A DNA stretch of 13,779 bases. Origin: a virus (Duplodnaviria > Heunggongvirae > Uroviricota > Caudoviricetes). The notes under the pieces were generated by a model. It was not told the origin of the DNA. It made no database searches and saw nothing but the letters and a program-made list of their open reading frames with translations. Numbering within the stretch: position 1 is the first letter of the stretch; every line of letters starts with the position of its first letter. This document shows positions 1-13,779 of the stretch, piece by piece. The DNA is taken from IMG/VR virus record IMGVR_UViG_2534682222_000007, positions 1-13,779 of that record, one strand, 5' to 3'. A program made the position numbers and the translations under genes.

Positions 1-1169
1 ACGCGACCCAGGATCAGGCCGTAACTGATGCCGTTGCGCAGCGTCTTCAGCGCGCGGCGTTGCAGACGGTCGATGCCGTTCTGCTCGTAGTACAGCGGGT
101 TAACAGTGGTGTTTGACCCGTTGATGATTTCGTTGGCCAGATCCAGCTCAAGGTTGATTGCAGTCCATGCTACTGAGTACCAGTAGTTGAACGGATTGCC
201 GTCCAGCATGTGGCCTGCCACCAGCATTTTGTTGCTCAGCCCACCTTCCGCGGCGGTACCGACGTAGTTGATGCTGTTATCCTGGAGCTGCTTTAGGAGC
301 GTGCCATTACCTTCGACCGGATACTCTGTAACCCCGTAACCAAATCGGTACGCCATCGGTGGCACCATGTTTGACGATCCAGGGTCGTTTGCCAGCGAGG
401 ACTGGAACGGGAACGCCATGGAAAACTCGCCTGCTGGGATGTTTGTTGACTCCACTCCCGCAAACACAGATTTGTTTTTGGTGGCGACCCACGCCGGGTA
501 GGTGGCGATCGTGGTGGTGACAAAGAAATACACCAGTGACGCCGGGCTGGTATACAGGCCAGTCAGGGTTTTAAACGTCGTCTCACCGTCCCACTCGCGC
601 GGCACCAGATACGAGAAGAATTTCTGGTAGGTGTTACCCAGAGAAATGTCTTCATCGATGAAGTCAGCCAGTGCAGCCACAGCAGCAGCGACAGACACGT
701 CGCCCAGCTCCAGCACGTAGACCGCGCGGGTAGTTCCCTGAGCCCAGAACGTGGTGTTCATCTCGATGATTTCGTTTGCCGCTACGGTTTTCACCGTACC
801 CATAACTGTTGCCGTTCCTGGGTCTGTAGCCAACGGATAAGTGAAGGCGGTAGAAGTGGTCACAGTGGCGGTTACGGCGCGGTTATAAGCTGCTGGAGTA
901 ACGCCAGAGACAACCAGCGGGATAGTGTTGCCAACGTTCCAGCCATGCGCTGCCGAGAGGGTCACCGTGACCACGCCGGTTGCCCAGGTGATAGTTGAAA
1001 TAGTTTTAGCCGGTGAGGTGATATCCTTCAGATCGTCTTTCGTCGTCAGGAGCTGGTACTCACCTGCAGCCAGGGTTGTTCCGCCCATGGAGATCATCGC
1101 GCCGGATTTGAGCAGCTGAGAGGGCTTCGGTGGATTGGTCACCGAGACGTTAATGTTAACAATTGCCAT
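1..1169 (-). CDS. Phage virion structural protein, partial (ATG at 1167-1169, C-terminus runs past window position 1); Ig-like Ala/Thr/Gly-rich domain near the N-terminus
   Basis: Manual translation of the minus strand from the ATG at 1167-1169 (MAIVNINVSVTNPPKPSQLL...) stays open to position 1 (about 389 codons). GGAG sits about 10 nt upstream. The gene is not in the supplied ORF track because it has no stop inside the window. Residues about 56-128 resemble the C-terminal domain of the 4554..5414 protein. Function (tail or neck) is not resolved. Confidence 0.5.
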   Translation of the reverse strand, partial: MAIVNINVSVTNPPKPSQLLKSGAMISMGGTTLAAGEYQLLTTKDDLKDITSPAKTISTITWATGVVTVTLSAAHGWNVGNTIPLVVSGVTPAAYNRAVTATVTTSTAFTYPLATDPGTATVMGTVKTVAANEIIEMNTTFWAQGTTRAVYVLELGDVSVAAAVAALADFIDEDISLGNTYQKFFSYLVPREWDGETTFKTLTGLYTSPASLVYFFVTTTIATYPAWVATKNKSVFAGVESTNIPAGEFSMAFPFQSSLANDPGSSNMVPPMAYRFGYGVTEYPVEGNGTLLKQLQDNSINYVGTAAEGGLSNKMLVAGHMLDGNPFNYWYSVAWTAINLELDLANEIINGSNTTVNPLYYEQNGIDRLQRRALKTLRNGISYGLILGR

Positions 1170-1173
1170 TTAT

Positions 1174-2115
1174 TTATTTCTCCGGGTAAATGGACGGAAT
1201 CGCTGACGTGATCAGCCTGCGCGCGACATTCCGCATGCGCTGCTGGTAATAGTTGACTTTGAACTTGATGGTTTTTCTCATGGCGATGATGTTCAGCTCG
1301 TTCTGCGTGACGCGCTCGTCCTGAACGACCGGGATATTCATCACGCCCATTTCCGCGTCATCGCCGAGCGTGTACTGCTGTACGTACCTCAGGAAATCTT
1401 CAACTCCGGCATTGCGCAGGCCAGTAATGGAGATCGTCACATCCTCGGAAACCAGCTGATACTGGTTCTGCTGCTCATCAAGGTAAAAGCTCCCGGCAAT
1501 CGGCGCGGTGTTGCTGCACTTCACCGTTGCATACGGCGGAGACAGGTTCTGCGTCGACAGCATGGCCGGGAACATAGGCATGTACTGACTCAGCGTCAGC
1601 CATACCGGCAATGAACTCGAAACCACCACATCAGCCAGATCGATGTCATCTGCAGAGTTGATGATCTGCGATCGCATGTAGGGGAATATTGCCTCACCTG
1701 TGTAGTGGTAGAGGTTGGCCGGTTCGTTCAACCCGGTGCGCCGGGAGAAGGAAAACTGAAGGCCAAAGAACTCGCCGATATACAGGACATCAGATCCGAT
1801 ATCGTTGAACGGGTCGATATCCGCCTGCGCGGTAAAAGTTACGACGTTCCGGTCGTAGAGTTGTTCATCGCCCTGTATGGTCTCGGTCGTCAGGTGCAGA
1901 TAACCTTTGACATCGACCGTATCTGGCTCGCTGCTCGGGTCGTCCGACAGAACAGACGCTTTCACCCAGAAGACGAAACCATCAAGCGGGAGAACCTTGC
2001 GGATATACTTCGTGAACGTGACCACCTGAAAGCGGCTCAGGTCATCAAGACCCTGCGTCAGCGTGGCGTTAAGCTCGGTTTTTGCAGTTTGCTGCAACTC
2101 ATCCAGGGAAGGCAT
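1174..2115 (-). CDS. Hypothetical phage virion-associated protein (313 aa)
   Basis: Long minus-strand ORF with an ATG start at 2113-2115, overlapping the upstream gene by 16 nt and tightly packed in the structural operon. No motif recognised by eye. Confidence 0.5.
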   Translation of the reverse strand: MPSLDELQQTAKTELNATLTQGLDDLSRFQVVTFTKYIRKVLPLDGFVFWVKASVLSDDPSSEPDTVDVKGYLHLTTETIQGDEQLYDRNVVTFTAQADIDPFNDIGSDVLYIGEFFGLQFSFSRRTGLNEPANLYHYTGEAIFPYMRSQIINSADDIDLADVVVSSSLPVWLTLSQYMPMFPAMLSTQNLSPPYATVKCSNTAPIAGSFYLDEQQNQYQLVSEDVTISITGLRNAGVEDFLRYVQQYTLGDDAEMGVMNIPVVQDERVTQNELNIIAMRKTIKFKVNYYQQRMRNVARRLITSAIPSIYPEK

Positions 2116-2533
2116 TTAGCACCCCGCTCACCCAGGCGCGCATAGCGGCCTGATAAGTTCCGGTATCGATGAATGACGGGCGCGGTGGCCCCTTTTTGTT
2201 CTTGAATCGCCGGGAGATGCCGTCCAGCGCGCGGCGCGTAGGCACACCAGGTAATCCGTTCATTTCGGTGTTGTCGAGGAAGGCGACAAACAGGTCATGG
2301 ATCCGTGACATTGACTCTGCCAGAGGGTCCCTTAACGGCGGCGCGCCAGCCAGCATATTTTCAAGATTTGCGGCGAGGTCTTTACTCATCAGGTCGGCGA
2401 TGTCGTTTCCGTACCTGTCAAAAAAGGTCTGCATAATCTGGTATTTTTCTTCCAGATATTCAGCAACATCCCCTGTCGTGGTGTTCTCATCTTCGTAGGG
2501 AAGGTCGATAACACCAAGATGAAAGGTGATCAT
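2099..2533 (-). CDS. Hypothetical phage protein (144 aa), possibly head-tail joining or virion morphogenesis
   Basis: ORF 2099..2545 re-set to the ATG at 2531-2533 (MITFHLGV...), which forms an ATGA overlap with the stop of the upstream gene. Its position after the capsid gene is the only basis for the functional guess. Confidence 0.45.
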   Translation of the reverse strand: MITFHLGVIDLPYEDENTTTGDVAEYLEEKYQIMQTFFDRYGNDIADLMSKDLAANLENMLAGAPPLRDPLAESMSRIHDLFVAFLDNTEMNGLPGVPTRRALDGISRRFKNKKGPPRPSFIDTGTYQAAMRAWVSGVLNAFPG

Positions 2534-2958
2534 GACAGCCCCCACAAACTACCGAACTGCTGGGCAATCATCAGATAGCGGCGTCCCCAGGGGTCCTGCA
2601 ACATTTGCAGATCGGCCAGAGACAAATCTTTGAAGAAGTCAGGCACCAGACGCTGCGCGCTGGTTGAGTTATCCCCGGCCCCCGTTATCACGCCAGCCTT
2701 GAAATTGTTAAGGCCATACTCTTTCCTGAACTCGGCGAATACCGATTCCGTGCCATAGTTGACCAGGAATGACGCGCCCAGGTTGTACACGGCAACGGTG
2801 TACAGATTCGGCGTGACGCACGCGATATCAGGGTTTACCCACTCAACCGCGCCGCCATACGCCAGGGTGAAAGACGGCGAGTCGTCGGGAACCTGCGCGG
2901 CGGTAACGCCCATGTCAGTTCGAACGAATTCGATGAATCCCGACAGGCTCGTTGTCAT
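2530..2958 (-). CDS. Hypothetical phage protein (142 aa), possible head-tail connector or head completion protein
   Basis: Minus-strand ORF with an ATG at 2956-2958 in ATGA overlap with the upstream stop. Translational coupling within the morphogenesis operon. Confidence 0.45.
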   Translation of the reverse strand: MTTSLSGFIEFVRTDMGVTAAQVPDDSPSFTLAYGGAVEWVNPDIACVTPNLYTVAVYNLGASFLVNYGTESVFAEFRKEYGLNNFKAGVITGAGDNSTSAQRLVPDFFKDLSLADLQMLQDPWGRRYLMIAQQFGSLWGLS

Positions 2959-3437
2959 TTTTTCTTGCTCCCGGATTTTTCAGTCACGATTGTTTCGTTA
3001 ACCGTTGGGGTGTCTTCGCTGTCTTCGCGGCCTTTCGCCTGCTCCGCGCTGACTTCCATTTCGCCGGAATAGCCGGTACCGCTTTCGCGCAGAGAACTAT
3101 CCAGAGCCGCTACGGATGCCTGGCGACGGCCGTGGGCGCCACGGGTCAGGTGAATATCGTTATCGCGGATTGCTTTTTCGATTACCGGCGCTGATACAGG
3201 CTTGTTTAGGCTGTAGCACAGGCCGACAAACGCCTGGCTCTGGTCGATTTTTGTCGAGTCAACCAGACCATAAACCTGATGGTGCTGCACCACCGCTTCA
3301 ATCTCTTCAGTTGTGCCATCCAGTACCATCATCTGGTCGCCGTGGTTAATCGGGATCTGAATAAGGCGGCCGGTCTCCAGCTTGCGATAGGCGAAAATCT
3401 GGCGCTGCTTGGTGGTGTTAGCGATATAGAGTTTCAT
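2955..3437 (-). CDS. Hypothetical phage protein (160 aa) with an acidic/Lys-rich, probably disordered C-terminal tail
   Basis: ATG at 3435-3437 with GAGGG about 7 nt upstream, immediately after the terminator that follows the capsid gene. The C-terminus (...EDSEDTPTVNETIVTEKSGSKKK) is low-complexity. Confidence 0.5.
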   Translation of the reverse strand: MKLYIANTTKQRQIFAYRKLETGRLIQIPINHGDQMMVLDGTTEEIEAVVQHHQVYGLVDSTKIDQSQAFVGLCYSLNKPVSAPVIEKAIRDNDIHLTRGAHGRRQASVAALDSSLRESGTGYSGEMEVSAEQAKGREDSEDTPTVNETIVTEKSGSKKK

Positions 3438-3450
3438 TGGTTACCCTCGT

Positions 3451-3484
3451 AAAAAAGCCCCTGCTGAGTTTCCCCGGCAGAGGC
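3451..3484 (-). terminator. Candidate intrinsic terminator after the major capsid gene (likely partial)
   Basis: On the minus-strand RNA, an 8-bp GC-rich stem (plus coordinates 3457-3464 pairing with 3477-3484, one G-U pair), a 12-nt loop, then UUUUUU (plus A-run 3451-3456). It lies between the capsid stop (3506) and the next start (3437). Confidence 0.5.
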
Positions 3485-3505
3485 TTAACCACTTCAAAGA
3501 ATGAA

Positions 3506-4537
3506 TCAGGCGCTGTACGCCATGGACAGGATGGTGATTGCTTCCGGACGAACTGCCCAGCCTGCGGTAGAACGCATTTCGGACAGAACATCGATGGCAC
3601 CACCAGCGATCGGCGTCGGAATCTCACGCGGCGCGGCCATGTCGGTAAACATCAGCGCGTTCGCGGCAAGAGACGGGGTCAGCTTGGCGAATTCGTTGGT
3701 GTTCACAGTCGAGTTGACCATTGGCACTTCGACCTCAGGGATGGTGATTACCACCGCATCGGTACCGCCAGCGCCAGCGCCGATCAATGTATCGTCATAC
3801 ACCCAGTCAACCTGGACGTTTGCGCCTTTCAGCACTTCTTTCACCGTGCCGCCGACGGTGTCAGTACCACCACCAGGACGCTGGTAAGAAGTCAGCTGAA
3901 CGATCTGCTGAATCTCCATGGCACCGAGGACGCGCTGCGGCCCCAGGATAACAACACGCTGCTGGCGACCCAGCTGCATGGTGCGGGTCAGTGCTGCCTG
4001 CACGTGGCCCAGAAGATATACCGCCATCTGCCCGTGGTCATAGGTTAGCACGGTGGTGTTGCTGTTGCTGTCAGGAGGCAGGGACTCGGTAGTCGCGCCA
4101 GCGGTGTTCAGCAGGCCTTCACCACCAGCAGGGTTCATGCCATACAGCAGAGCAGAGCGCAGTTGCTGGAAGATGCCCTGACGCATACCCAGACGCTGGG
4201 CTTCCGGCAGTGCAAAGTTCCAGTTACCGGCAGCGGCCATGTCATGGTGATCGTAGATACCACGGCAGCGGAACAGGTAGGTTGGGGTTGAAATCATCTT
4301 CGCATCCAGCGCCACGCTCGGCAGTTGGTTACCGTTACCGGACTGACTGGAAGTGGTCTGGGTGCGAATATCCAGGCGGCGCATGTAGACGTACTGATCT
4401 CCTACGCCGAGACGGACTTGCGGGTTACCGCTGGCGATGGTTTCAAACGCACCTGACGCCTGCTGGTAACCAATGATCATCTCCGGCGCGATGTACGACG
4501 GATTGACGATGGTGTAGCTGGGGGTAATTGCAGCCAT
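3506..4537 (-). CDS. Putative major capsid protein (343 aa)
   Basis: ATG at 4535-4537 with GGAG upstream. Size and position (after scaffold and decoration-like genes, followed by a terminator) fit a major capsid protein. Family assignment is from memory of similar phage clusters, not a search. Confidence 0.6.
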   Translation of the reverse strand: MAAITPSYTIVNPSYIAPEMIIGYQQASGAFETIASGNPQVRLGVGDQYVYMRRLDIRTQTTSSQSGNGNQLPSVALDAKMISTPTYLFRCRGIYDHHDMAAAGNWNFALPEAQRLGMRQGIFQQLRSALLYGMNPAGGEGLLNTAGATTESLPPDSNSNTTVLTYDHGQMAVYLLGHVQAALTRTMQLGRQQRVVILGPQRVLGAMEIQQIVQLTSYQRPGGGTDTVGGTVKEVLKGANVQVDWVYDDTLIGAGAGGTDAVVITIPEVEVPMVNSTVNTNEFAKLTPSLAANALMFTDMAAPREIPTPIAGGAIDVLSEMRSTAGWAVRPEAITILSMAYSA

Positions 4538-4553
4538 TTAATTCAGCTCCCGA

Positions 4554-5414
4554 TTAAAGTAAGACCAGCGCGCAGCTGTCGGTGTTATTCCAGGTCAGGA
4601 AACCAGTCGCGCTGTCATAGCTGACAGTCTTGGAGTTGCCTGATTCGATGGCGAGCACTTTTACCGGCAGCGTGATGTCGGAAAGCGTAACTGCGCCGAT
4701 GGTGCCCTGCGTGGTTGCAGCGCCGCCTGGTGCAGTTGCCGGTGCATAGGTGAAGGTCGTTGTGTTCACGACTGAAAGCACGACTACTGTGCCGTTGTAC
4801 GCCGCAGGAGCGACGCCGCTGATTTTCACGTACTGACCAGCAGTCAGGCCATGAGCTGAAGCGGTTACCGCTGTCGCCACACCATTGGCATAGGTCACTG
4901 CTGTTGTCGCAATATCAGAACCGGCGAAACCGGCCGCCGCCGCAGTGGTGATCTGGTTGTTCACGAAGTCCCAGGCCAGAGGCGTTTTCACTGACGCGCC
5001 GGAGGTGCCAAGCGCAACAACCTGCGCAGAAGCTTTCAACGGAACGCGCATGTTGGAGCCCAGGCGGTAGTACGAAACGCTCATGCCTGATGCGTACAGC
5101 GGAACCGGTGACTGCGGAGTGGTCAGGCCGTTGTGAGCCTGATTGAAGACAGTGAAGCCTTCCAGCTCGGCAACAGACACAGCGCGACGGATGTAAGAAC
5201 CGCGAGGGCTTGAACTGGTGCCAGGCAGAAGCTCAGCAACTGGCAGACCGCCCCAGAGAGGTTTGTTTTCCGTTGCCGCCACAGTACCCGCCGCCAGGTT
5301 AAAGCGGTTAGCCGGGTCATCAAGCGCCACGCCCTGAATATAACCGTCGGACTGCACACCGAAGGAGCCAAGCGCATTCGTGGTTGCCATCGGGTTAAGA
5401 GATAAGTTAGCCAT
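4554..5414 (-). CDS. Putative head decoration / accessory structural protein (286 aa) with a C-terminal Ig-like domain
   Basis: ATG at 5412-5414, sited between the scaffold and capsid genes (the position lambda D occupies). The C-terminal region (...VTASAHGLTAGQYVKISGVAPAAYNGTVVV...TFTYAPATAPGG...) is Ala/Thr/Gly-rich and paralogous to the N-terminal domain of the 1..1169 protein. Confidence 0.45.
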   Translation of the reverse strand: MANLSLNPMATTNALGSFGVQSDGYIQGVALDDPANRFNLAAGTVAATENKPLWGGLPVAELLPGTSSSPRGSYIRRAVSVAELEGFTVFNQAHNGLTTPQSPVPLYASGMSVSYYRLGSNMRVPLKASAQVVALGTSGASVKTPLAWDFVNNQITTAAAAGFAGSDIATTAVTYANGVATAVTASAHGLTAGQYVKISGVAPAAYNGTVVVLSVVNTTTFTYAPATAPGGAATTQGTIGAVTLSDITLPVKVLAIESGNSKTVSYDSATGFLTWNNTDSCALVLL

Positions 5415-5429
5415 GCTTGAGAGCTCCCG

Positions 5430-7052
<1,623 letters not shown>

Positions 7053-7061
7053 TTAATGCTC

Positions 7062-7892
7062 CTATGCTGATTTCATAGACGCCATGAACTTCTGCCCCTT
7101 CTGGGTCAGCATGTGTTCAGGAATACTCCGGAGGTTGTACAGATAGGTTACGTAACACCGGCAAAAAACCTCTTCTCCGGGCTGCGTAATTTCATCGAGA
7201 TAACCGGAAGGCCCCACCTTCACGTAACCGTTTTTTTGTGCCCAGTTACCGCGGATGAGATAGACCACCTTATCGCGCTCTTTGTGATCTTCCCGGTAGT
7301 CATAACCTGCCTGCCGCCAGTGACTATGCCACTCTGCAGCTATGGCGTTATTACTGGCAGCTATGATGTTGTCGATGTTTGCAATGAGTTTATGGTTCTG
7401 ATCAATCATCACCCGACGCGCTTCAAAATCAATTTGCAAGGCGCTTTTCTGAATGTGATCACAGTTGTAATTAACCCCGCTTTTGGATGATGGAGATAGT
7501 CCACCTCCAACGTAATCCTGCACAGGGATGCTGGTAGCCCACCCGCTAAATCTCTGGACTGTTTTGTTTATCGCGCCTGTACGATTTAACTTAATTAAGT
7601 CGGCGCTAGCCAAGATGCGTCTATCAAGCTCGCTTCTTAACTTAGGCTCCATGTAATTCAGAGTAAATCGAGACAAGCCTGGATGCCGATCCAGCGCCTT
7701 AGCCCTGTTTATCTGCATTTCATAGGTTGATCGAAGCTTATCTGACACCCTTGATATGTAGTCATCATGGGTTTCGCTTTCCGCCGCCTGGCGAATAATT
7801 CCCTGCCATCGCTCCAGCTCCTCTCTCGAGGTATAGCCATTGCGCAAGAAGAATTTAACCGCCTCCCTTACTGTTCTGGAAAATTTGCTCAT
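7062..7892 (-). CDS. Putative head morphogenesis / minor head protein (Mu F / SPP1 gp7-like, 276 aa)
   Basis: ATG at 7890-7892 in ATGA overlap with the portal stop. Position directly after the portal gene and a C-terminal CRC motif (EEVFCRCYVTY) that I recall as conserved in Mu F-like proteins. Confidence 0.55.
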   Translation of the reverse strand: MSKFSRTVREAVKFFLRNGYTSREELERWQGIIRQAAESETHDDYISRVSDKLRSTYEMQINRAKALDRHPGLSRFTLNYMEPKLRSELDRRILASADLIKLNRTGAINKTVQRFSGWATSIPVQDYVGGGLSPSSKSGVNYNCDHIQKSALQIDFEARRVMIDQNHKLIANIDNIIAASNNAIAAEWHSHWRQAGYDYREDHKERDKVVYLIRGNWAQKNGYVKVGPSGYLDEITQPGEEVFCRCYVTYLYNLRSIPEHMLTQKGQKFMASMKSA

Positions 7893-9307
7893 AGCATCAT
7901 CCCGCCGCCAGGCTCTTCAGCTTTCGGCGGCTCAGGCGGTGGGTTTTCCTTCAGAGAGTCGTAATCGAGGTTAAGCCGCTGAGGGAATAGGTTCTCGTTG
8001 GCGTTGGCGTTTTCACACGCCCACTCGATCAGCGTCGCGCGGTTTTCCGGGTCAGCAGTGAGTTGCGGCAGCACCACTTCCAGCATACTGACGATCGCCT
8101 TAAAGCGCGTTTCGTCGACCTTCACCTTCTCGCTTTCCGGCTCTTTCAGGGGGGATGGCCAGCGATATTCGAAGTTGTTTATCCAGCTCGCGAAATACAC
8201 GCTGTAGGTGTTTTTCAGCTCCGGGAAGTCAGCACGCAGCGACTGGAAGAATTCAATGCTCCAGGCGCGGTACTGGCACACGCGGATGAAGAACGCATAA
8301 AGCGGGTCCAGCCACTCGCGGATGTTGTCGATGTACACCGCTACAGCGCGTGCATCTTCAGTGCCTTCACCGAAGCCCTGGGCGAACGTCTCGGAGTTGA
8401 GGATGATTGCCGGCATGTCAGCGGCGGCGGCCACGTTCTCGAGAATGTGCTTACGCGCAGAGTCGAGAGGTTTTTCCAGGTTGCTCAGGTCGATTGACTC
8501 GATACCATCCTGCGGTCCAATCTGCAGGACCTCACCAGTTTTACCTCGCTTCAGCAGCATGCGCTTGAATCCACCTAGCGCCTGCATAACTTTGTTAACA
8601 ACCGCGCCAGCGCCTGCAATTTTGGTAATTAGCAGTCCGCCTTTAACCGCAACCATGTCATCAGTGCGCATGGTCTGAATGAAGGATTTCAGCGGGAAAA
8701 GCGCACGCTGATACACACTGCGTCCGGTGAACCCGAACGCCGCAGGGTTGTACGCGAGATAAATAGGATCTTCGTTCTGCGCGACTATGCATCGCGATTT
8801 GTGGTATGGCTTGCCAGCCACACGAATGCCTTCGACTTTCTGGAAGTCATGGGCGTTTGGGTCCTGGTTCAGCACGATACTGCCCGCGGTATTCAACGGA
8901 TCGAGAATGTTAAAGCTGACGTTGTGCTTGTACAGCGTGCGGTAGTCCAGCGATTCATTCGGCTCCTGGTTATCCACCAGCATTGCTATCGCTGATACGC
9001 CGTAAATACGGGCTATGCGCGCGGCGTTGGCGATGTGCTGGTTCGCACCCATCTCTTTCCATTCGCGCTCGAACGCGTCGCGCAGGCGCTGCTCAAGGCC
9101 GTACGACTGGGCAACATGCACGGTGCGCGGCTCATTCATCGCCATTTTAATCGGGCGATCCACCATCTTTCCGCCCAGGGGGTGGAAGAGATAAATCGTC
9201 TTGCAGGCCTGATACCCAGCCGAGGAACCAGGCTGAATATCGTCGCTGTCCAGCAATGCCATCAACTCTGGAGAGCAGCTGCCGATTTCGAAATCGTCTT
9301 CGTTCAT
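7889..9307 (-). CDS. Putative portal protein (472 aa)
   Basis: ATG at 9305-9307, immediately downstream of the large terminase gene, with size typical of a portal and an acidic C-terminus. Assignment is by synteny; no diagnostic motif was verified. Confidence 0.6.
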   Translation of the reverse strand: MNEDDFEIGSCSPELMALLDSDDIQPGSSAGYQACKTIYLFHPLGGKMVDRPIKMAMNEPRTVHVAQSYGLEQRLRDAFEREWKEMGANQHIANAARIARIYGVSAIAMLVDNQEPNESLDYRTLYKHNVSFNILDPLNTAGSIVLNQDPNAHDFQKVEGIRVAGKPYHKSRCIVAQNEDPIYLAYNPAAFGFTGRSVYQRALFPLKSFIQTMRTDDMVAVKGGLLITKIAGAGAVVNKVMQALGGFKRMLLKRGKTGEVLQIGPQDGIESIDLSNLEKPLDSARKHILENVAAAADMPAIILNSETFAQGFGEGTEDARAVAVYIDNIREWLDPLYAFFIRVCQYRAWSIEFFQSLRADFPELKNTYSVYFASWINNFEYRWPSPLKEPESEKVKVDETRFKAIVSMLEVVLPQLTADPENRATLIEWACENANANENLFPQRLNLDYDSLKENPPPEPPKAEEPGGGMML

Positions 9308-9318
9308 TGGTTCTCTCG

Positions 9319-10650
9319 TCAGATTGCGTCGCCGCTGCCGAAGGCGATGATCAGCCCGTAGGTGTAATCATCGAGCAAATCGTCGGCGCGCTTGTGCGCG
9401 TTCTTATCGGCAAGGTGGAATCGTGAAACCTGCTTATGCAGATGGTTTGCTGTTTCGCCCTTGAAGACGGCCGTCTTCTCGTAGGCGTATCGGGATATTT
9501 TCGCCAGCCCGCGGTAGTGATAACCGGAGGCCATAATGGCGCGTTCGTCCTTCCCTTTGCTGGTCAGGGCGGATTCAATTTTGTTGACCGGCCATCCCAG
9601 GCTTTCACCTTTCTGCAGGAGGATGCTGCCCATGCTGGCGTCTTCGATGAAAACGCCGAGGCTGCCATTTACAGCGACGCACTGGCCGGATAGCTCATTC
9701 AGCCGGGTGAAAACAGACGGAATCCACTCTTCCAGCAGCGCGCCGTCGATCTGCACTACATCCCAGTCGAGTATGGTCAGGCGCTGAATGCCGGGCCGGG
9801 TGTCGACGGCGTAGTAAACTACCGCCGTGCCGTCGTGCTCAGTACCGCCCTTAACGGCGGTATCCATGACAGCGAAAACGGCCTGGCACATCTCAGGGTA
9901 ATCGACTGGCTGATCCTGGTTTTCACCCTCGAACCATTTGCGGACGTCGAACAGTGACGCAGCGGACCAGTCGACGAACTCGGCCAGGAACTCCTGCCGG
10001 AAAACGCGAGGGTCGTTGTTCTGTCGCTCTTTCTCCAGTTCCTCAGGAGGAACGAAGGGGTTGGATGACGTCGGAGCATGATGCTCATGGAAGCCGAGGT
10101 CTTTGTTATGGCAGATGGCATAGAAGAAGTTTTCTTCGTCCACACCGTCAGGCGTTGAGAATACGTAGGCCCGGCCTTTTGTCGTCAGTAGCGTCGGCTT
10201 AATCGACTTCGGCCAGATTTCCTTCAGCATTTCAGGCGACTTGGTAAACGCCGCCTCATCGATCAGGATAATTTCGTACTCACGACCACGACCGGCCAGT
10301 TTGTTGTCGTTGGTGACCCAGAAGTCAATCTTCCCGCCGTTCTTCAGCAGCAGGCGCTTTTCCTGCCGGCTGAAGCTCTTTTTCAGCGGCAGCAGGATTT
10401 CTTCCAACTTGTCGTAGATCTCCTGGTACTGGCGATACTCGGCAGTGAAGATACCGACCCGACCGCCCAGCTCGATATCCATGCCCGGGCGCCGGAACTG
10501 CGACGTTGCGTAGGTCACCGCAGCGCTCGACAGCATGAAGGTTTTCCCCCAGCGTCGACCACAGCGAACCGCATTCAACTGGTGATCCCAGGAGTCAGAC
10601 CAGACCGTTAACTGCCCGTTGTGTAGCGTGGGTAGGTAAATGTCGGCCAT
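9319..10650 (-). CDS. terL: Terminase large subunit (443 aa)
   Basis: Walker A-like motif VRCGRRWGKT near the N-terminus, Walker B-like YEIILIDEAAF, and C-terminal acidic motifs (AVMDTAV, VFIEDAS, DDLLDDYTYG) consistent with an RNase H-like nuclease domain. Start ATG at 10648-10650, 3 nt after the small-subunit stop. Confidence 0.85.
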   Translation of the reverse strand: MADIYLPTLHNGQLTVWSDSWDHQLNAVRCGRRWGKTFMLSSAAVTYATSQFRRPGMDIELGGRVGIFTAEYRQYQEIYDKLEEILLPLKKSFSRQEKRLLLKNGGKIDFWVTNDNKLAGRGREYEIILIDEAAFTKSPEMLKEIWPKSIKPTLLTTKGRAYVFSTPDGVDEENFFYAICHNKDLGFHEHHAPTSSNPFVPPEELEKERQNNDPRVFRQEFLAEFVDWSAASLFDVRKWFEGENQDQPVDYPEMCQAVFAVMDTAVKGGTEHDGTAVVYYAVDTRPGIQRLTILDWDVVQIDGALLEEWIPSVFTRLNELSGQCVAVNGSLGVFIEDASMGSILLQKGESLGWPVNKIESALTSKGKDERAIMASGYHYRGLAKISRYAYEKTAVFKGETANHLHKQVSRFHLADKNAHKRADDLLDDYTYGLIIAFGSGDAI

Positions 10651-10653
10651 GAT

Positions 10654-11370
10654 TTATCTTCCCGGGATTGGCAGCGAGTTATGCACGACGATCGCGTTAT
10701 CCTTGTCACCGTCTTTCAGCGCATCGATTTCGAGCTCAACCTTTTCGGTCGCGGCTTCGCGGTAAGCGGCATCAACGCGCTGTTTGATAATCGCCGCCTT
10801 GGTGTACTCCAGCGACTCAATGCGGGCCGTGTTACGGTGCATGGCTTTTTGCGCAGATGAAATTAGCTCGTGAAGATTATTGGCGGTATCGCCATCAGCT
10901 ATTTCAAGCTCAGTCTGCCAGCGGCCAATATTTTCAGCAGCGGTAAGGTTCGCCGCACGCAACCAGAAAAGCTCATCATCAAGAGTGAGCGCCTGAGCAT
11001 CCTCGGTAATGGCATCAGATAGAAGCATTCGGCGTCCATAGCCACCATGCTTCAATGCGTTCTGATTTCCGGGTCTGGAATTATAATGAGCGCGTTTCGT
11101 TTCTGGTGAGTTTGATGGTTTTGCGACTTCGCAGTTATCCACTAAGCCCGCTGGTGGCTTACTCTTTGCCACTTTCTCCTTTTGCGAATTCGCATTCTTT
11201 TTCGCAGCTTCTTTCTGCGATTTCGCACCATACGACGTTACTTTGATGTAGCGTTTCGCAGATGCGTAATTCAGTCCCTGAGCCTGGCACCAGTCTTTGG
11301 GGGAAATACCTGTTTTGGCATGCTCGGCGAGGAACTGGTCTTGCAGTGCTCCCCAGTCCGGTTTTGCCAT
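10654..11370 (-). CDS. terS: Putative terminase small subunit (238 aa)
   Basis: Immediately upstream of and translationally coupled to the large terminase gene. The N-terminal segment looks HTH-like (ISPKDWCQAQGLNYASAKRYIKV). GAGGT ribosome-binding site 8 nt upstream of the ATG at 11368-11370. Confidence 0.55.
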   Translation of the reverse strand: MAKPDWGALQDQFLAEHAKTGISPKDWCQAQGLNYASAKRYIKVTSYGAKSQKEAAKKNANSQKEKVAKSKPPAGLVDNCEVAKPSNSPETKRAHYNSRPGNQNALKHGGYGRRMLLSDAITEDAQALTLDDELFWLRAANLTAAENIGRWQTELEIADGDTANNLHELISSAQKAMHRNTARIESLEYTKAAIIKQRVDAAYREAATEKVELEIDALKDGDKDNAIVVHNSLPIPGR

Positions 11371-11432
11371 AATACTTACCTCACGTTGACATTATCGAAG
11401 CCCCTCAGTGAAGGGCTCCTGTAATGCCGCGA

Positions 11433-11957
11433 TCAGCCAATAAGTAATTCCGGCTGCGTTACCTGCATGATGTGCTCATGCTCGAGCTCCAGGACGCGCT
11501 TCTCTTTCTTCCGCTCGTTCATCAAACGGCTTCCGATCGTGCCTTTCAGCTTTGAGCGCGTTTCTTTGATGGCGTAGCGGTGCTGCATTTCTTCGCCCAT
11601 CGCCATGCGTCGGTTTAGCTGCTCGGCCATCCAGTTAAAGGCGGCGATGTATTGCTCTTTAATCGCGGTCGCCGTTTTTCCGGTGAAACCCATTACAAGC
11701 ATCATCCAGCCATCTTTCGTGATGTTGTACATCAGGCGCATTTCGCCTTTCTTATCGAGGTATTCAACGGGCTCAAAATTGAGCCGGTTAAAATCAGGGG
11801 AGCAATCTGACTCCAGCCGCTTGATAGTGCGAAGAACGTTTTTATGCGCCTTGCCGAAATAGCGGGCGATCTTCATGGACGTCGTGATGACCTTTCCGTT
11901 GGATGGCAAAACCATTTCGCGGAAGTCGAAGGCCGGAATAACTGACGGATTATTCAT
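11433..11957 (-). CDS. rha: Rha-family phage regulatory protein (about 174 aa)
   Basis: The N-terminal sequence (MNNPSVIPAFDFREMVLPSNGKVITTSMKIARYFGKAHKNVLRTIKRL...FNRLNFEPVEYLDKKGEMRLMYNITKDGWMMLVMGFTGKTA) matches my recollection of the Rha domain. The track ORF 11433..11993 starts on a non-ATG codon; the first ATG at 11955-11957 is preferred. Confidence 0.7.
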   Translation of the reverse strand: MNNPSVIPAFDFREMVLPSNGKVITTSMKIARYFGKAHKNVLRTIKRLESDCSPDFNRLNFEPVEYLDKKGEMRLMYNITKDGWMMLVMGFTGKTATAIKEQYIAAFNWMAEQLNRRMAMGEEMQHRYAIKETRSKLKGTIGSRLMNERKKEKRVLELEHEHIMQVTQPELLIG

Positions 11958-12091
11958 AGCGTCTTTACCTTTTAGAAAGTGAGCCTGTCTCACAGAAAAG
12001 CCGCCCGAGAGAGGTCGCCACCTATAACGGCATTTCTCAGGCTCGCTTACTGAAAGGCTCTCGTTGATGTACGCGTGAGATGCGCAGACAT

Positions 12092-12116
12092 AAAAAAGCC
12101 CGACCGAAGTCAGGCT
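12092..12116 (-). terminator. Intrinsic terminator downstream of Rz/Rz1
   Basis: Minus-strand RNA: 8-bp stem (one G-U pair) closed by a UUCG tetraloop, followed by UUUUUU (plus A-run 12092-12097); 20 nt after the Rz stop at 12136. Confidence 0.6.
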
Positions 12117-12135
12117 CTGTTATTTGGGTGACGAA

Positions 12136-12609
12136 TCACTTAAGACACTGCTCTTTGATGTAGTCCTGCATGCCGCGAATCATTTTGTCAGCGGTTGCGA
12201 TTCCGTCCCGGTGATCGAAATAATTCCGTCGAGCGTCTGGAGTAAGTTCGGGGGCTCCTGCATCATCCACGCCGGTGGAGGAGGTGGCTTTTGGCACTCC
12301 AGGGCAGGTTGCAGCGATGCGCAGCCGTTTAGCGCCAGAATCGACATCACGACGCAAATCGTTAATGGTCTTTTTAGCATCGGACAATTCCTTCGTGTAT
12401 TTGGCATCCAGTGCAGCGACATCGCGCTGACGGGTCTGCATGTCTTTAATGGTGGCGGTCGCCAGGAGGAGTTTCTCAGTGGCCTTATCGCGCTGGTCTC
12501 TGTAAGTGATGGCGTTGTCGCGGTAGTGGTTCACGAAGAAAGCCAGTGCGCCGATTAACGCCAGCACCAGCAACTGCAGCCAGTAACGCTTAACCAGTGC
12601 GCTAATCAT
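12136..12609 (-). CDS. Rz: Rz-type i-spanin (157 aa)
   Basis: N-terminal transmembrane segment followed by [12 protein letters not shown]...[15 protein letters not shown], closely resembling lambda Rz as I recall it. ATGA overlap with the endolysin stop. Confidence 0.85.
12180..12380 (-). CDS. Rz1: Rz1-type o-spanin lipoprotein (66 aa), embedded in Rz in the +1 frame
   Basis: ORF entirely inside Rz. Start re-set to the ATG at 12378-12380 (AAGGA about 9 nt upstream): [24 protein letters not shown]... with a signal peptide, lipobox-like LNGC, and the PPPPPAW motif characteristic of lambda Rz1. Confidence 0.8.
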
Positions 12610-13055
12610 GACAGGAACAGAGCTCGCTCTGCCTTGCGGCGATTCGTGAGCCCCGGCATCACCTTTCCGCCTGATTTATTCCAGCGCAGAAATTCATCTG
12701 CCGCGCCTTTTATATCGCCAGCATTCAGCTTTTTCAGCAGTGTAGATGTGGAAAGAGCACGCGACCCAACGTTGTAAGCGAACGACACCAGTGCGTCGAA
12801 CTGGCCTTGTGTCAGCTTCACCCTGACAACTTTCAGCACGTCATTCTCATAACCAACAAGCCCTGTTTTCAGAAGCCTGTCAGCGGTTTGCTGGTCGATA
12901 GTCATACCGCGCTTTACTGGCTTTCCGTCAACCGGATGGGTCCAGCCATAGCCGATGGTCCACGGCGCATCTCCCGTTCCGGGGTCGGGGTAAGCAGTCA
13001 GCCGACAACCTTCAAATTTTTTTATCAGAGCAATTCCGTCAGGACTGGTTTGCAT
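12606..13055 (-). CDS. R: Endolysin, T4/P22-type lysozyme (GH24), soluble (149 aa)
   Basis: Catalytic E-D-T arrangement in [26 protein letters not shown] and a C-terminus ([11 protein letters not shown]) like P22 gp19. The track ORF begins at a TTG (13082); the ATG at 13053-13055 with GGGAG 6-7 nt upstream is preferred, giving a 17-nt overlap with S. Confidence 0.85.
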
Positions 13056-13362
13056 CGTCAACTCCCGCCTTTTTTGCTGCAAGTTTTTTAATCAGATTGC
13101 CGATCGAATCGGTGCCGATGTATCCAATAAAGACGCTGGCTATGTAGGCGAGGTTGCTGCTCAGGCCGATAAAGTCCAGAAGGTCACGAACGAACCAGGC
13201 AATCATCGCGCACATCAGCGCATCAATTAGCGTTTTTGTTACCGCGCCGCCGTTATAGCGACCACGCAGATACGCCATGATAAAAGCCAGCATTGCACCA
13301 ATACCCTGCTCCTTGGCGGCAAGTAGCGCAGCGATGAAATCTTGTTTGTATGGCATTTTCAT
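13039..13362 (-). CDS. S: Class I holin, lambda S-like (107 aa) with a dual-start Met1-Lys2-Met3 motif
   Basis: [39 protein letters not shown]... is near-identical in pattern to lambda S as I recall it. GGAGG ribosome-binding site upstream. The track ORF (147 aa) is an N-terminal over-extension. Confidence 0.9.
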
Positions 13363-13372
13363 AGGCCTCACC

Positions 13373-13386
13373 TCCGATTTTTCGGA
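13373..13386 (-). promoter_or_regulatory. sdi-like stem-loop overlapping the S ribosome-binding site
   Basis: Minus-strand RNA 5'-UCCGA-AAAA-UCGGA-3' (plus 13373-13377 pairing with 13382-13386); the 3' arm overlaps the GGAGG Shine-Dalgarno just before the tandem start codons. Confidence 0.35.
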
Positions 13387-13470
13387 TGGCGCTGTGTGTG
13401 TTTGTAGGGGAAAGGCCGTCAGACTCTGATTGCTACATGGCATCTGAAAATGATATCTGCGGCCTGCAAT

Positions 13471-13494
13471 AAAAAAGCCCACGGCGCGGTGGGC
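13471..13494 (-). terminator. Intrinsic terminator within the late leader, about 110 nt upstream of S
   Basis: Minus-strand RNA: perfect 6-bp GC-rich stem GCCCAC/GUGGGC (plus 13477-13482 with 13489-13494), 6-nt loop, then UUUUUU (plus A-run 13471-13476). Confidence 0.5.
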
Positions 13495-13749
13495 AATAGA
13501 GGGTAGTGCGTTGAGCTTTTGCTCTTATGGTCCTGGTAGGTATTTGGTGTGTGGTGACCGGTGCTGTGTTTTCCGGCATGTAAATGAACTACCCGTCGTC
13601 GCCATGGTGAGCCTTTACCTCACCATCTAGCTGATAAGTTAGCGCATCAGCCTGCGCATTCACCACAACGATAATTGCACTGCGCCTGTTTCGGTTAGCG
13701 TAACGGGATTAACCGGTCACCCCAATGCAATTATCTGTTGTGCAGATAC

Positions 13750-13778
13750 AAAAAAGCCCCGAGCTATTAACTCAGGGC
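13750..13778 (-). terminator. Intrinsic terminator, candidate tR' analogue (end of a 6S-like late leader RNA)
   Basis: Minus-strand RNA: 8-bp stem (plus 13756-13763 with 13771-13778, one G-U), 7-nt loop, then UUUUUU (plus 13750-13755). It sits about 390 nt upstream of S, matching the tR'-to-S spacing in lambda; the flanking sequence resembles lambda tR' from memory. Confidence 0.5.
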
Positions 13779-13779
13779 C

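Follow-up and report, generated by a model that had tools for sequence, protein, structure and literature searches.

A predicted beta-tulip-type capsid cement protein with an inserted beta-barrel in the head module of a Felixviridae-type temperate myophage

The window, i.e., the whole stretch of 13,779 nucleotides that was analyzed (positions 1 to 13,779 of IMG/VR record IMGVR_UViG_2534682222_000007, Caudoviricetes), is the late region of a temperate myophage of the Felixviridae type, and its late operon lies entirely on the minus strand. The order of transcription starts with genes for a holin, an endolysin, Rz, a Rha-family regulator, a 238-aa protein in the position of the small terminase, the large terminase, and the portal; it continues with a head-morphogenesis protein, a NUDIX/scaffold-like protein, the 286-aa protein that is the subject of this study, the capsid protein, and small head-completion and neck proteins. 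The features of the window that are relevant here are as follows.

11433-13482, minus strand: lysis cassette and Rha-family regulator (holin, PF05106; endolysin/lysozyme, PF00959; Rz, PF03245; Rha, PF09669)
9319-10650, minus strand: large terminase
7889-9307, minus strand: portal, DUF1073-type
7062-7892, minus strand: head-morphogenesis protein
5430-7049, minus strand: NUDIX and scaffold/prohead-protease-like gene, 539 aa, upstream neighbor in the head module
5424-5428, minus strand: Shine-Dalgarno motif GGGAG of the decoration gene, as read from the sequence, 9 nt before the ATG
4554-5414, minus strand: predicted decoration (cement) protein gene, 286 aa, stop codon (4554-4556) included
3506-4537, minus strand: major capsid protein gene, 343 aa, HK97 fold, PF09950/DUF2184-type; proposed binding partner
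3449-3486, minus strand: terminator-like hairpin with U-run directly 3' of the capsid gene (dG of -26.7 kcal/mol, z of -2.7)

Relatives of the window are the Klebsiella phages Chronis and RothC/D, the Yersinia vB_YenM phages, and the Pantoea phage PdC23, with about 78% identity to a group of temperate Yersinia myophages and, for the initial 30% of the query, to PdC23. Phages of this type have recently been classified as Felixviridae (PMC12629751), and our literature search returned no proteomic or structural study of virions for Chronis, RothC/D, PdC23, the Yersinia phages, or Felixviridae in general. The lysis cassette and the Rha-family regulator are located directly upstream of the terminase genes. 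The holin reading frame as called (13039-13482) overlaps that of the endolysin by 44 nt, and its true start is probably further downstream than in the list of open reading frames.

The initial annotation had described a 286-aa reading frame at positions 4554 to 5414 of the minus strand, between the scaffold and capsid genes, and both statements are exact, with the gene at 5430-7049 on one side and the gene at 3506-4537 on the other. The reading frame opens with an ATG codon 15 nt past the TAA stop of the NUDIX/scaffold-like gene and a gap of 16 nt separates its end from the capsid gene. A GGGAGCT motif also precedes the capsid gene (4547-4551), the ribosome-binding site thus being common to both genes. 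The partial terminator previously noted after the capsid gene is real: the hairpin with its U-run (3449-3486) sits in the 68-nt spacer between the capsid stop (3506) and the start of the next gene (3437). A scan for consensus promoters and terminators yielded nothing relevant and missed this hairpin, probably because its stem is interrupted by unpaired bases. Decoration and capsid genes are both placed upstream of it, and the combination of this position with a shared, strong ribosome-binding site fits an abundant virion protein.

The upstream neighbor of 539 aa has an N-terminal NUDIX hydrolase domain (PF00293; E value of 8.7e-17) and matches phrog_6216; its residues ~159 to 415 match phrog_530 and phrog_2229, the "head maturation protease." It also contains a repetitive coiled-coil segment rich in Ala, Glu, and Lys, with tandem repeats of periods 75 and 24 in the DNA at positions 5915 to 6069. 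Such a junction of a NUDIX enzyme with a head scaffold is unusual. The counterpart in the Escherichia coli prophage Rac-SA53 has 430 aa and is noted as "nudix," and that of a 30-kb metagenomic contig (L006; 428 aa) shows only a weak match to PF09979 (Pa193_gp24). In RothD (L004), the NUDIX/scaffold gene (4821-6410) is the target of the published Felixviridae "gp7" PCR marker primers (KlebPhaCol paper). These primers map to the sixth CDS of the RothD GenBank record, and the gene numbers of the paper are therefore offset from those of the deposit.

Judged from its sequence relatives, the predicted decoration gene is a real, conserved gene. It has 451 close matches, the nearest of which (97% identity) represents a cluster that is named from Salmonella enterica and comprises 1,833 sequences from Salmonella, E. 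coli, Klebsiella, and other enterobacteria, and hundreds of relatives at ~90% are found in genomes of E. coli, Klebsiella, Raoultella, and Citrobacter. An exhaustive search of a 50%-clustered library with 1.84 billion representatives returned 1334 relatives at an E value of ≤1e-3, and the relatives fall into two length classes of 196 to 226 aa and 278 to 313 aa. Profile searches, which the initial annotation had named as a check, gave a divided result. The whole protein (residues 1 to 286) matches phrog_6268 with an E value of 1.3e-95, the 211-position profile spanning the insert described below, and this family carries the label "unknown function"; the insert resembles the endosialidase barrel and the FCCH domain, but the core is without a match in Pfam, NCBIfam, or the PDB. 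No Pfam or NCBIfam family was assigned to the 286-aa protein, and a single-sequence search of the PDB gave nothing for the core. Existing records label the protein as "hypothetical protein," as "endosialidase" (PdC23 pdc_05, Yersinia phage 06.16-1), or, in UniRef, as "Phage tail protein." The latter two names are wrong.

Alignment of 112 relatives reduced the difference between short and long forms to one clean insertion at query residues ~160 to 245, and the gene is accordingly divided into four parts.

5310-5414, minus strand: N-terminal arm, codons 1-35, without predicted secondary structure, highly conserved
4938-5309, minus strand: first part of the core, codons 36-159
4680-4937, minus strand: inserted small beta-barrel, predicted to be of the endosialidase beta-barrel/E1 FCCH type, codons 160-245
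4557-4679, minus strand: C-terminal hairpin of two strands, completing the core, codons 246-286 (strands 252-267 and 272-285)

The core of the family hence comprises ~200 aa (residues 1 to 159 plus 246 to 286), and the C-terminal hairpin is found in short and long forms alike. Prophage Rac-SA53, for instance, has the short form without the insert (rac44, 205 aa); in the same prophage (L002, 1-71), a gene for the B chain of heat-labile enterotoxin IIa is located just upstream of the terminase/head module. The barrel is missing in 41 of the 111 aligned homologues, and members of the family have zero, one, or two copies of it at the same site, the doubled inserts of P0144 and P0253 being arranged in tandem. 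Long and short forms are interspersed on the core tree, a quick and rough neighbor-joining tree, which requires at least 17 parsimony changes for gain and loss of the insert, and even sister pairs with 60 to 65% core identity differ by its presence. The insert is furthermore the least conserved region, both family-wide and among relatives that are at least 87% identical. Variable copy number, frequent gain and loss, and the highest variability are together hard to square with a buried or lattice-forming domain, and we infer that the insert is an accessory, dispensable module that faces outward. The same domain occurs in 4 to 19 tandem copies in giant metagenomic proteins of 627 to 4855 aa (P0190, P0209, P0214, P0236, P0239, P0248, P0252, and P0261). 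These arrays are picked up by E1_FCCH (PF16190) only, marginally over threshold, and seem to be a family of repeats in phage surface proteins that has not been described before.

The opposite pattern was found at the N terminus. Residues 1 to 35 are the most conserved region (entropy of 0.08 among relatives with at least 87% identity) and harbor all three columns that are invariant in the 112 divergent homologues, i.e., F18, G24, and G28, yet residues 1 to 25 have no secondary structure and a pLDDT of 70 to 75 in the AlphaFold2 model. A segment that is unstructured in the monomer and at the same time most conserved is the pattern expected of an intermolecular arm, as in gp24 of Pseudomonas phage E217, and it is proposed by analogy that the arm contacts the capsid protein or neighboring trimers.

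For the insert, the initial annotation had suggested an Ig-like domain, which is contradicted by the absence of any Ig-type Pfam match at an E value of ≤0.1 and of any Ig protein among the top fold hits, where beta-barrels were found instead. A decoration protein of the Ig-like Hoc or pb10 type was rejected, as neither Pfam nor the fold provides an immunoglobulin-like beta-sandwich. The predicted fold of the insert matches endosialidase beta-barrels and the E1 FCCH domain. It matches PF12195 (End_beta_barrel) weakly, with an E value of 0.011, and its scores for this family and for PF16190 lie below the Pfam gathering thresholds; in a search of the family profile against PDB sequences, the insert alone was matched, namely, by an endosialidase beta-barrel (profile E value of 5e-4), and PHROG tail-fiber and virion-protein families are weakly matched over residues ~154 to 248. 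Such hits agree with those records that name the protein an endosialidase, and a depolymerase, tail, or tail-fiber protein could be read from them as well. We regard this as scarcely credible, since the match is confined to a noncatalytic barrel of ~60 to 85 aa (the endosialidase-matching stretch covers aa ~168 to 231, and the rest of the protein has no such match), which more than a third of the aligned homologues lack altogether. The protein of 286 aa also compares with catalytic fragments of ~660 aa, and its gene resides in the head module, with the sheath and tube genes following three to four genes downstream. A phage endosialidase, i.e., a GH58 tailspike, was rejected because the six-bladed beta-propeller of the sialidase domain, the triple-beta-helix stalk, and the C-terminal chaperone domain are all missing, and a tail protein was rejected because of the location in the head module. 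The insert is probably related to the barrel of the endosialidases of K1F (endoNF) and phi92 (PF12195) and to E1 FCCH (PF16190) but comes without the catalytic propeller, and it would have no catalytic function.

A candidate identity of the core emerged from its predicted structure. The AlphaFold2 model based on the family alignment is almost all-beta (pLDDT of 94.1, pTM of 0.86), and its core superimposes on solved decoration and cement proteins of the beta-tulip type. The best match was chain a of the FCWL1 decoration protein (score of 13.7; 136 of 142 residues at 2.4 Å), followed by a second chain of the FCWL1 decoration protein gp29 and the cyanophage Pam3 cement (11.9 each), the capsid stabilization protein of Haloferax HFTV1 (10.0), the capsid-stabilizing protein of TW1 (9.9), the Borrelia BB1 decorator P04 (9.8), Pseudomonas E217 gp24 (9.6), and the XM1 minor capsid protein gp53 (9.5). 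Weaker matches comprised the fiber base gp8.5 of phi29 (6.6) and MoeA (5.4 to 5.7), both of which are listed as beta-tulip relatives, together with TW1 gp56 and lambda gpD, in a review of decoration proteins (PMC7602432). Tail-tube proteins of FCWL1 and T1 were also among the weaker matches, and they may reflect a barrel-like domain in these proteins that matches the insert. Foldseek against the PDB pointed weakly in the same direction (best E value of 0.01, none at ≤0.001): capsid chains of FCWL1 and T1 were found at E values of ~0.02 to 0.03 with a target-normalized TM-score of 0.57, and endosialidase barrels and E1 FCCH were likewise matched.

The major capsid protein of the window was modeled as well, and its best matches were Pa193, XM1, FCWL1, Sf11, and Pam3, with TW1 in eighth place; its nearest structural neighbors hence come mostly from those phages that also provided the decoration matches. 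At the sequence level, the core had no match at an E value of ≤10 when the family profile was compared with all PDB sequences, hhalign gave a probability of 0.1% for the family profile against E217 gp24 and no sequence homology for the capsid profile against E217 gp25, and the capsid profile retrieved nothing from the PDB sequences. The missing homology weakens the claim of common descent but leaves the fold assignment untouched, because the solved decoration proteins, with 7 to 18% identity to the model, are equally dissimilar. Membership in this lineage is accordingly based on the predicted fold, synteny, and the matched lineage of the capsid protein.

With its scaffold/protease-like neighbor, the 286-aa protein might also be thought of as a nonvirion head-assembly factor, e.g., a chaperone or an additional scaffold that is lost from the prohead prior to its maturation. 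This explanation is very improbable in view of an all-beta fold that has neither the coiled coil nor the helix-turn-helix typical of scaffolds, the specific match to external decoration proteins, and the paired conservation with a capsid protein from a lineage in which decoration proteins of this kind accompany every solved member.

Gene order was compared as well. On contig L006, a short-form homologue (P0242; 38% identical to the target) is preceded by a portal gene (PF06381), a gene for ~262 aa, and the gene for ~428 aa with the weak PF09979 match, and it is followed by a 340-aa capsid gene. Another homologue (P0219; 34% identity), on the 5.7-kb contig L005, is encoded directly upstream of a 340-aa protein with 51% identity to the capsid protein of the window. 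The order of portal, ~270-aa head-morphogenesis protein, scaffold, target, and capsid is thus kept in L006, and it agrees with those of E217 and Pa193, both of which have the order scaffold, decoration, capsid. PF09979 is named after Pa193 gp24, a putative scaffold, and Pa193 gp25 is a decorating protein of 211 aa that forms trimers at every local three-fold axis, each of them contacting six subunits of the capsid protein gp26 and three neighboring trimers (PMC11456595). In E217, gp24 is a beta-tulip trimer whose N-terminal arm (residues 1 to 25) forms an inter-capsomer cage (PMC10329688). The XM1 decoration gene gp53 is located directly upstream of capsid gene gp54 (PMC10457771).

E217 gp24 and Pa193 gp25 (211 aa; PDB 8FRS and 9B40) resemble the target in the ~200-aa core, the N-terminal arm, and a gene located between those for a DUF2213-type scaffold and an HK97-fold capsid protein, whereas they have ~10% identity to it and no inserted barrel. 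The Pbunavirus capsid, moreover, has T=9 symmetry and a genome of 66 kb, and T=7 would be more likely for the ~45-kb genome here. The decoration proteins of FCWL1 and T1 and the Pam3 cement (PDB 9KMG, 9KZJ, and 8HDT) are shorter (142 to 166 aa), stem from siphophages, lack the insert, and are 11 to 14% identical to the target. XM1 gp53 and TW1 gp56 (PDB 7KMX and 5WK1) are trimeric and reinforce the junctions between capsomers on three-fold or quasi-three-fold axes, and XM1, a small myophage whose T=7 head contains 415 copies of the capsid protein, represents the size class expected here. Both differ from the target in their length of 148 to 160 aa, the lack of an insert, their marine hosts, and the absence of detectable sequence similarity. 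Lambda D has 110 aa. The initial annotation had assigned the protein to the slot of lambda D and had considered it much larger; the slot holds, but its size is not anomalous, because the core of ~200 aa is like E217 gp24 and Pa193 gp25. Lambda gpD (PF02924) occupies the same slot (protease/scaffold, D, E) and is a trimeric cement of the three-fold axes, and the review mentioned above groups it with the TW1-type proteins as a beta-tulip protein. Membership in the gpD sequence family was rejected, gpD being neither a family match nor the closest fold match.

Overall, the 286-aa protein is best explained as a capsid cement protein of the beta-tulip type from the TW1/XM1/E217/Pa193/FCWL1/T1/Pam3 lineage, with an inserted accessory barrel, a reading that builds on the structural model and to which we assign a probability of roughly 78%. 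The earlier proposal of a decoration or cement protein on a surface-decorated head is supported computationally by the matches of the capsid model, the order of scaffold, decoration, and capsid genes, and the size of the core. By analogy with the solved relatives, trimers would bind to the outer surface of the HK97-fold shell, at its icosahedral three-fold and quasi-three-fold axes, once the prohead has expanded. The N-terminal arm (aa 1 to 35) and the ~200-aa core may touch capsid subunits of adjacent capsomers as well as neighboring trimers and thereby form a stabilizing cage. A genome of ~45 kb makes T=7 likely, which would correspond to about 420 copies per head. The barrel (residues ~160 to ~245) probably projects outward and may provide a multivalent, weakly glycan-binding surface toward host capsule, O-antigen, or mucus.

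The same fold could also serve elsewhere on the capsid, in a penton- or vertex-specific decorator or a head-fiber base, present in fewer copies and acting mainly in the display of the barrel on the surface rather than in stabilization. Same-fold proteins do occupy other positions in some capsids (Borrelia BB1 P03 and P04 and phi29 gp8.5 are among the fold matches), and the review (PMC7602432) notes some decoration proteins that serve mainly in adhesion. The Pantoea phage PdC23 has an additional 80-aa gene, annotated as "Dec protein, OB-fold," after the capsid gene (L001 7292-7534); that relative may hence carry two different decoration proteins, between which stabilization could be shared. Nevertheless, the nearest structural matches (FCWL1, Pam3, TW1, E217, and XM1) are described in the respective papers as trimers of the three-fold or quasi-three-fold axes, the gene and the capsid gene have the same strong ribosome-binding site, which suggests a similar abundance, and the wide distribution of barrel-less short forms indicates that the core is functional by itself. 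We therefore consider a position away from the three-fold axes unlikely and favor the three-fold cement protein.

Regarding the role of the barrel in such a cement protein, the K1F endosialidase offers a precedent, its barrel holding one of three polysialic-acid-binding sites and being a hotspot of host discrimination (PMC12632334). Residues S460 and S468 of this barrel site align with the family-conserved residues S199 and N207 in the profile alignment, a correspondence that assumes an offset of 244 between chain and protein numbering. It is no more than suggestive, because the residues could be structural turn residues. Extrapolation from a domain with about 20% identity makes the insert probably a sugar-binding surface domain. 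T5 pb10, T4 Hoc, and phi29 gp8.5 resemble the arrangement proposed for the target in joining a capsid-binding module to an outward adhesin-type module in many copies, and modules of this kind have been implicated in carbohydrate or mucus binding (PMC7602432). In those proteins, Ig-like domains or a helical fiber are appended at one end, whereas the barrel of the target is inserted within the cement fold, and its core is of the cementing type. A further-reaching and tentative idea, which we hold to be possible rather than probable, is that temperate enterobacterial phages associated with the gut use the insert as a swappable lectin module under glycan selection and present several hundred copies of it on the head. 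In that case, the variable copy number (zero, one, or two) and the high variability would result from selection for the binding of particular glycans of capsule, O-antigen, or mucin. If true, this would be a capsid-borne, non-Ig counterpart of Hoc-type adherence to mucus or host within a structural cement protein; a literature search for "decoration protein" combined with "FCCH" found no paper.

The current study proposes a function for a widespread family that had none by name, phrog_6268 being without a Pfam or NCBIfam model, and it corrects the labels "endosialidase" and "tail protein," which could mislead the mining of depolymerases. It also ties the Felixviridae head, at the level of the predicted fold, to the capsid lineage of Pbunavirus, XM1, and TW1. 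Provided that the barrel binds glycans, the cement protein would contain a natural permissive insertion site that tolerates 85 to 170 extra residues, which would be relevant for capsid display and for the adherence of temperate gut phages to their hosts or to mucus.
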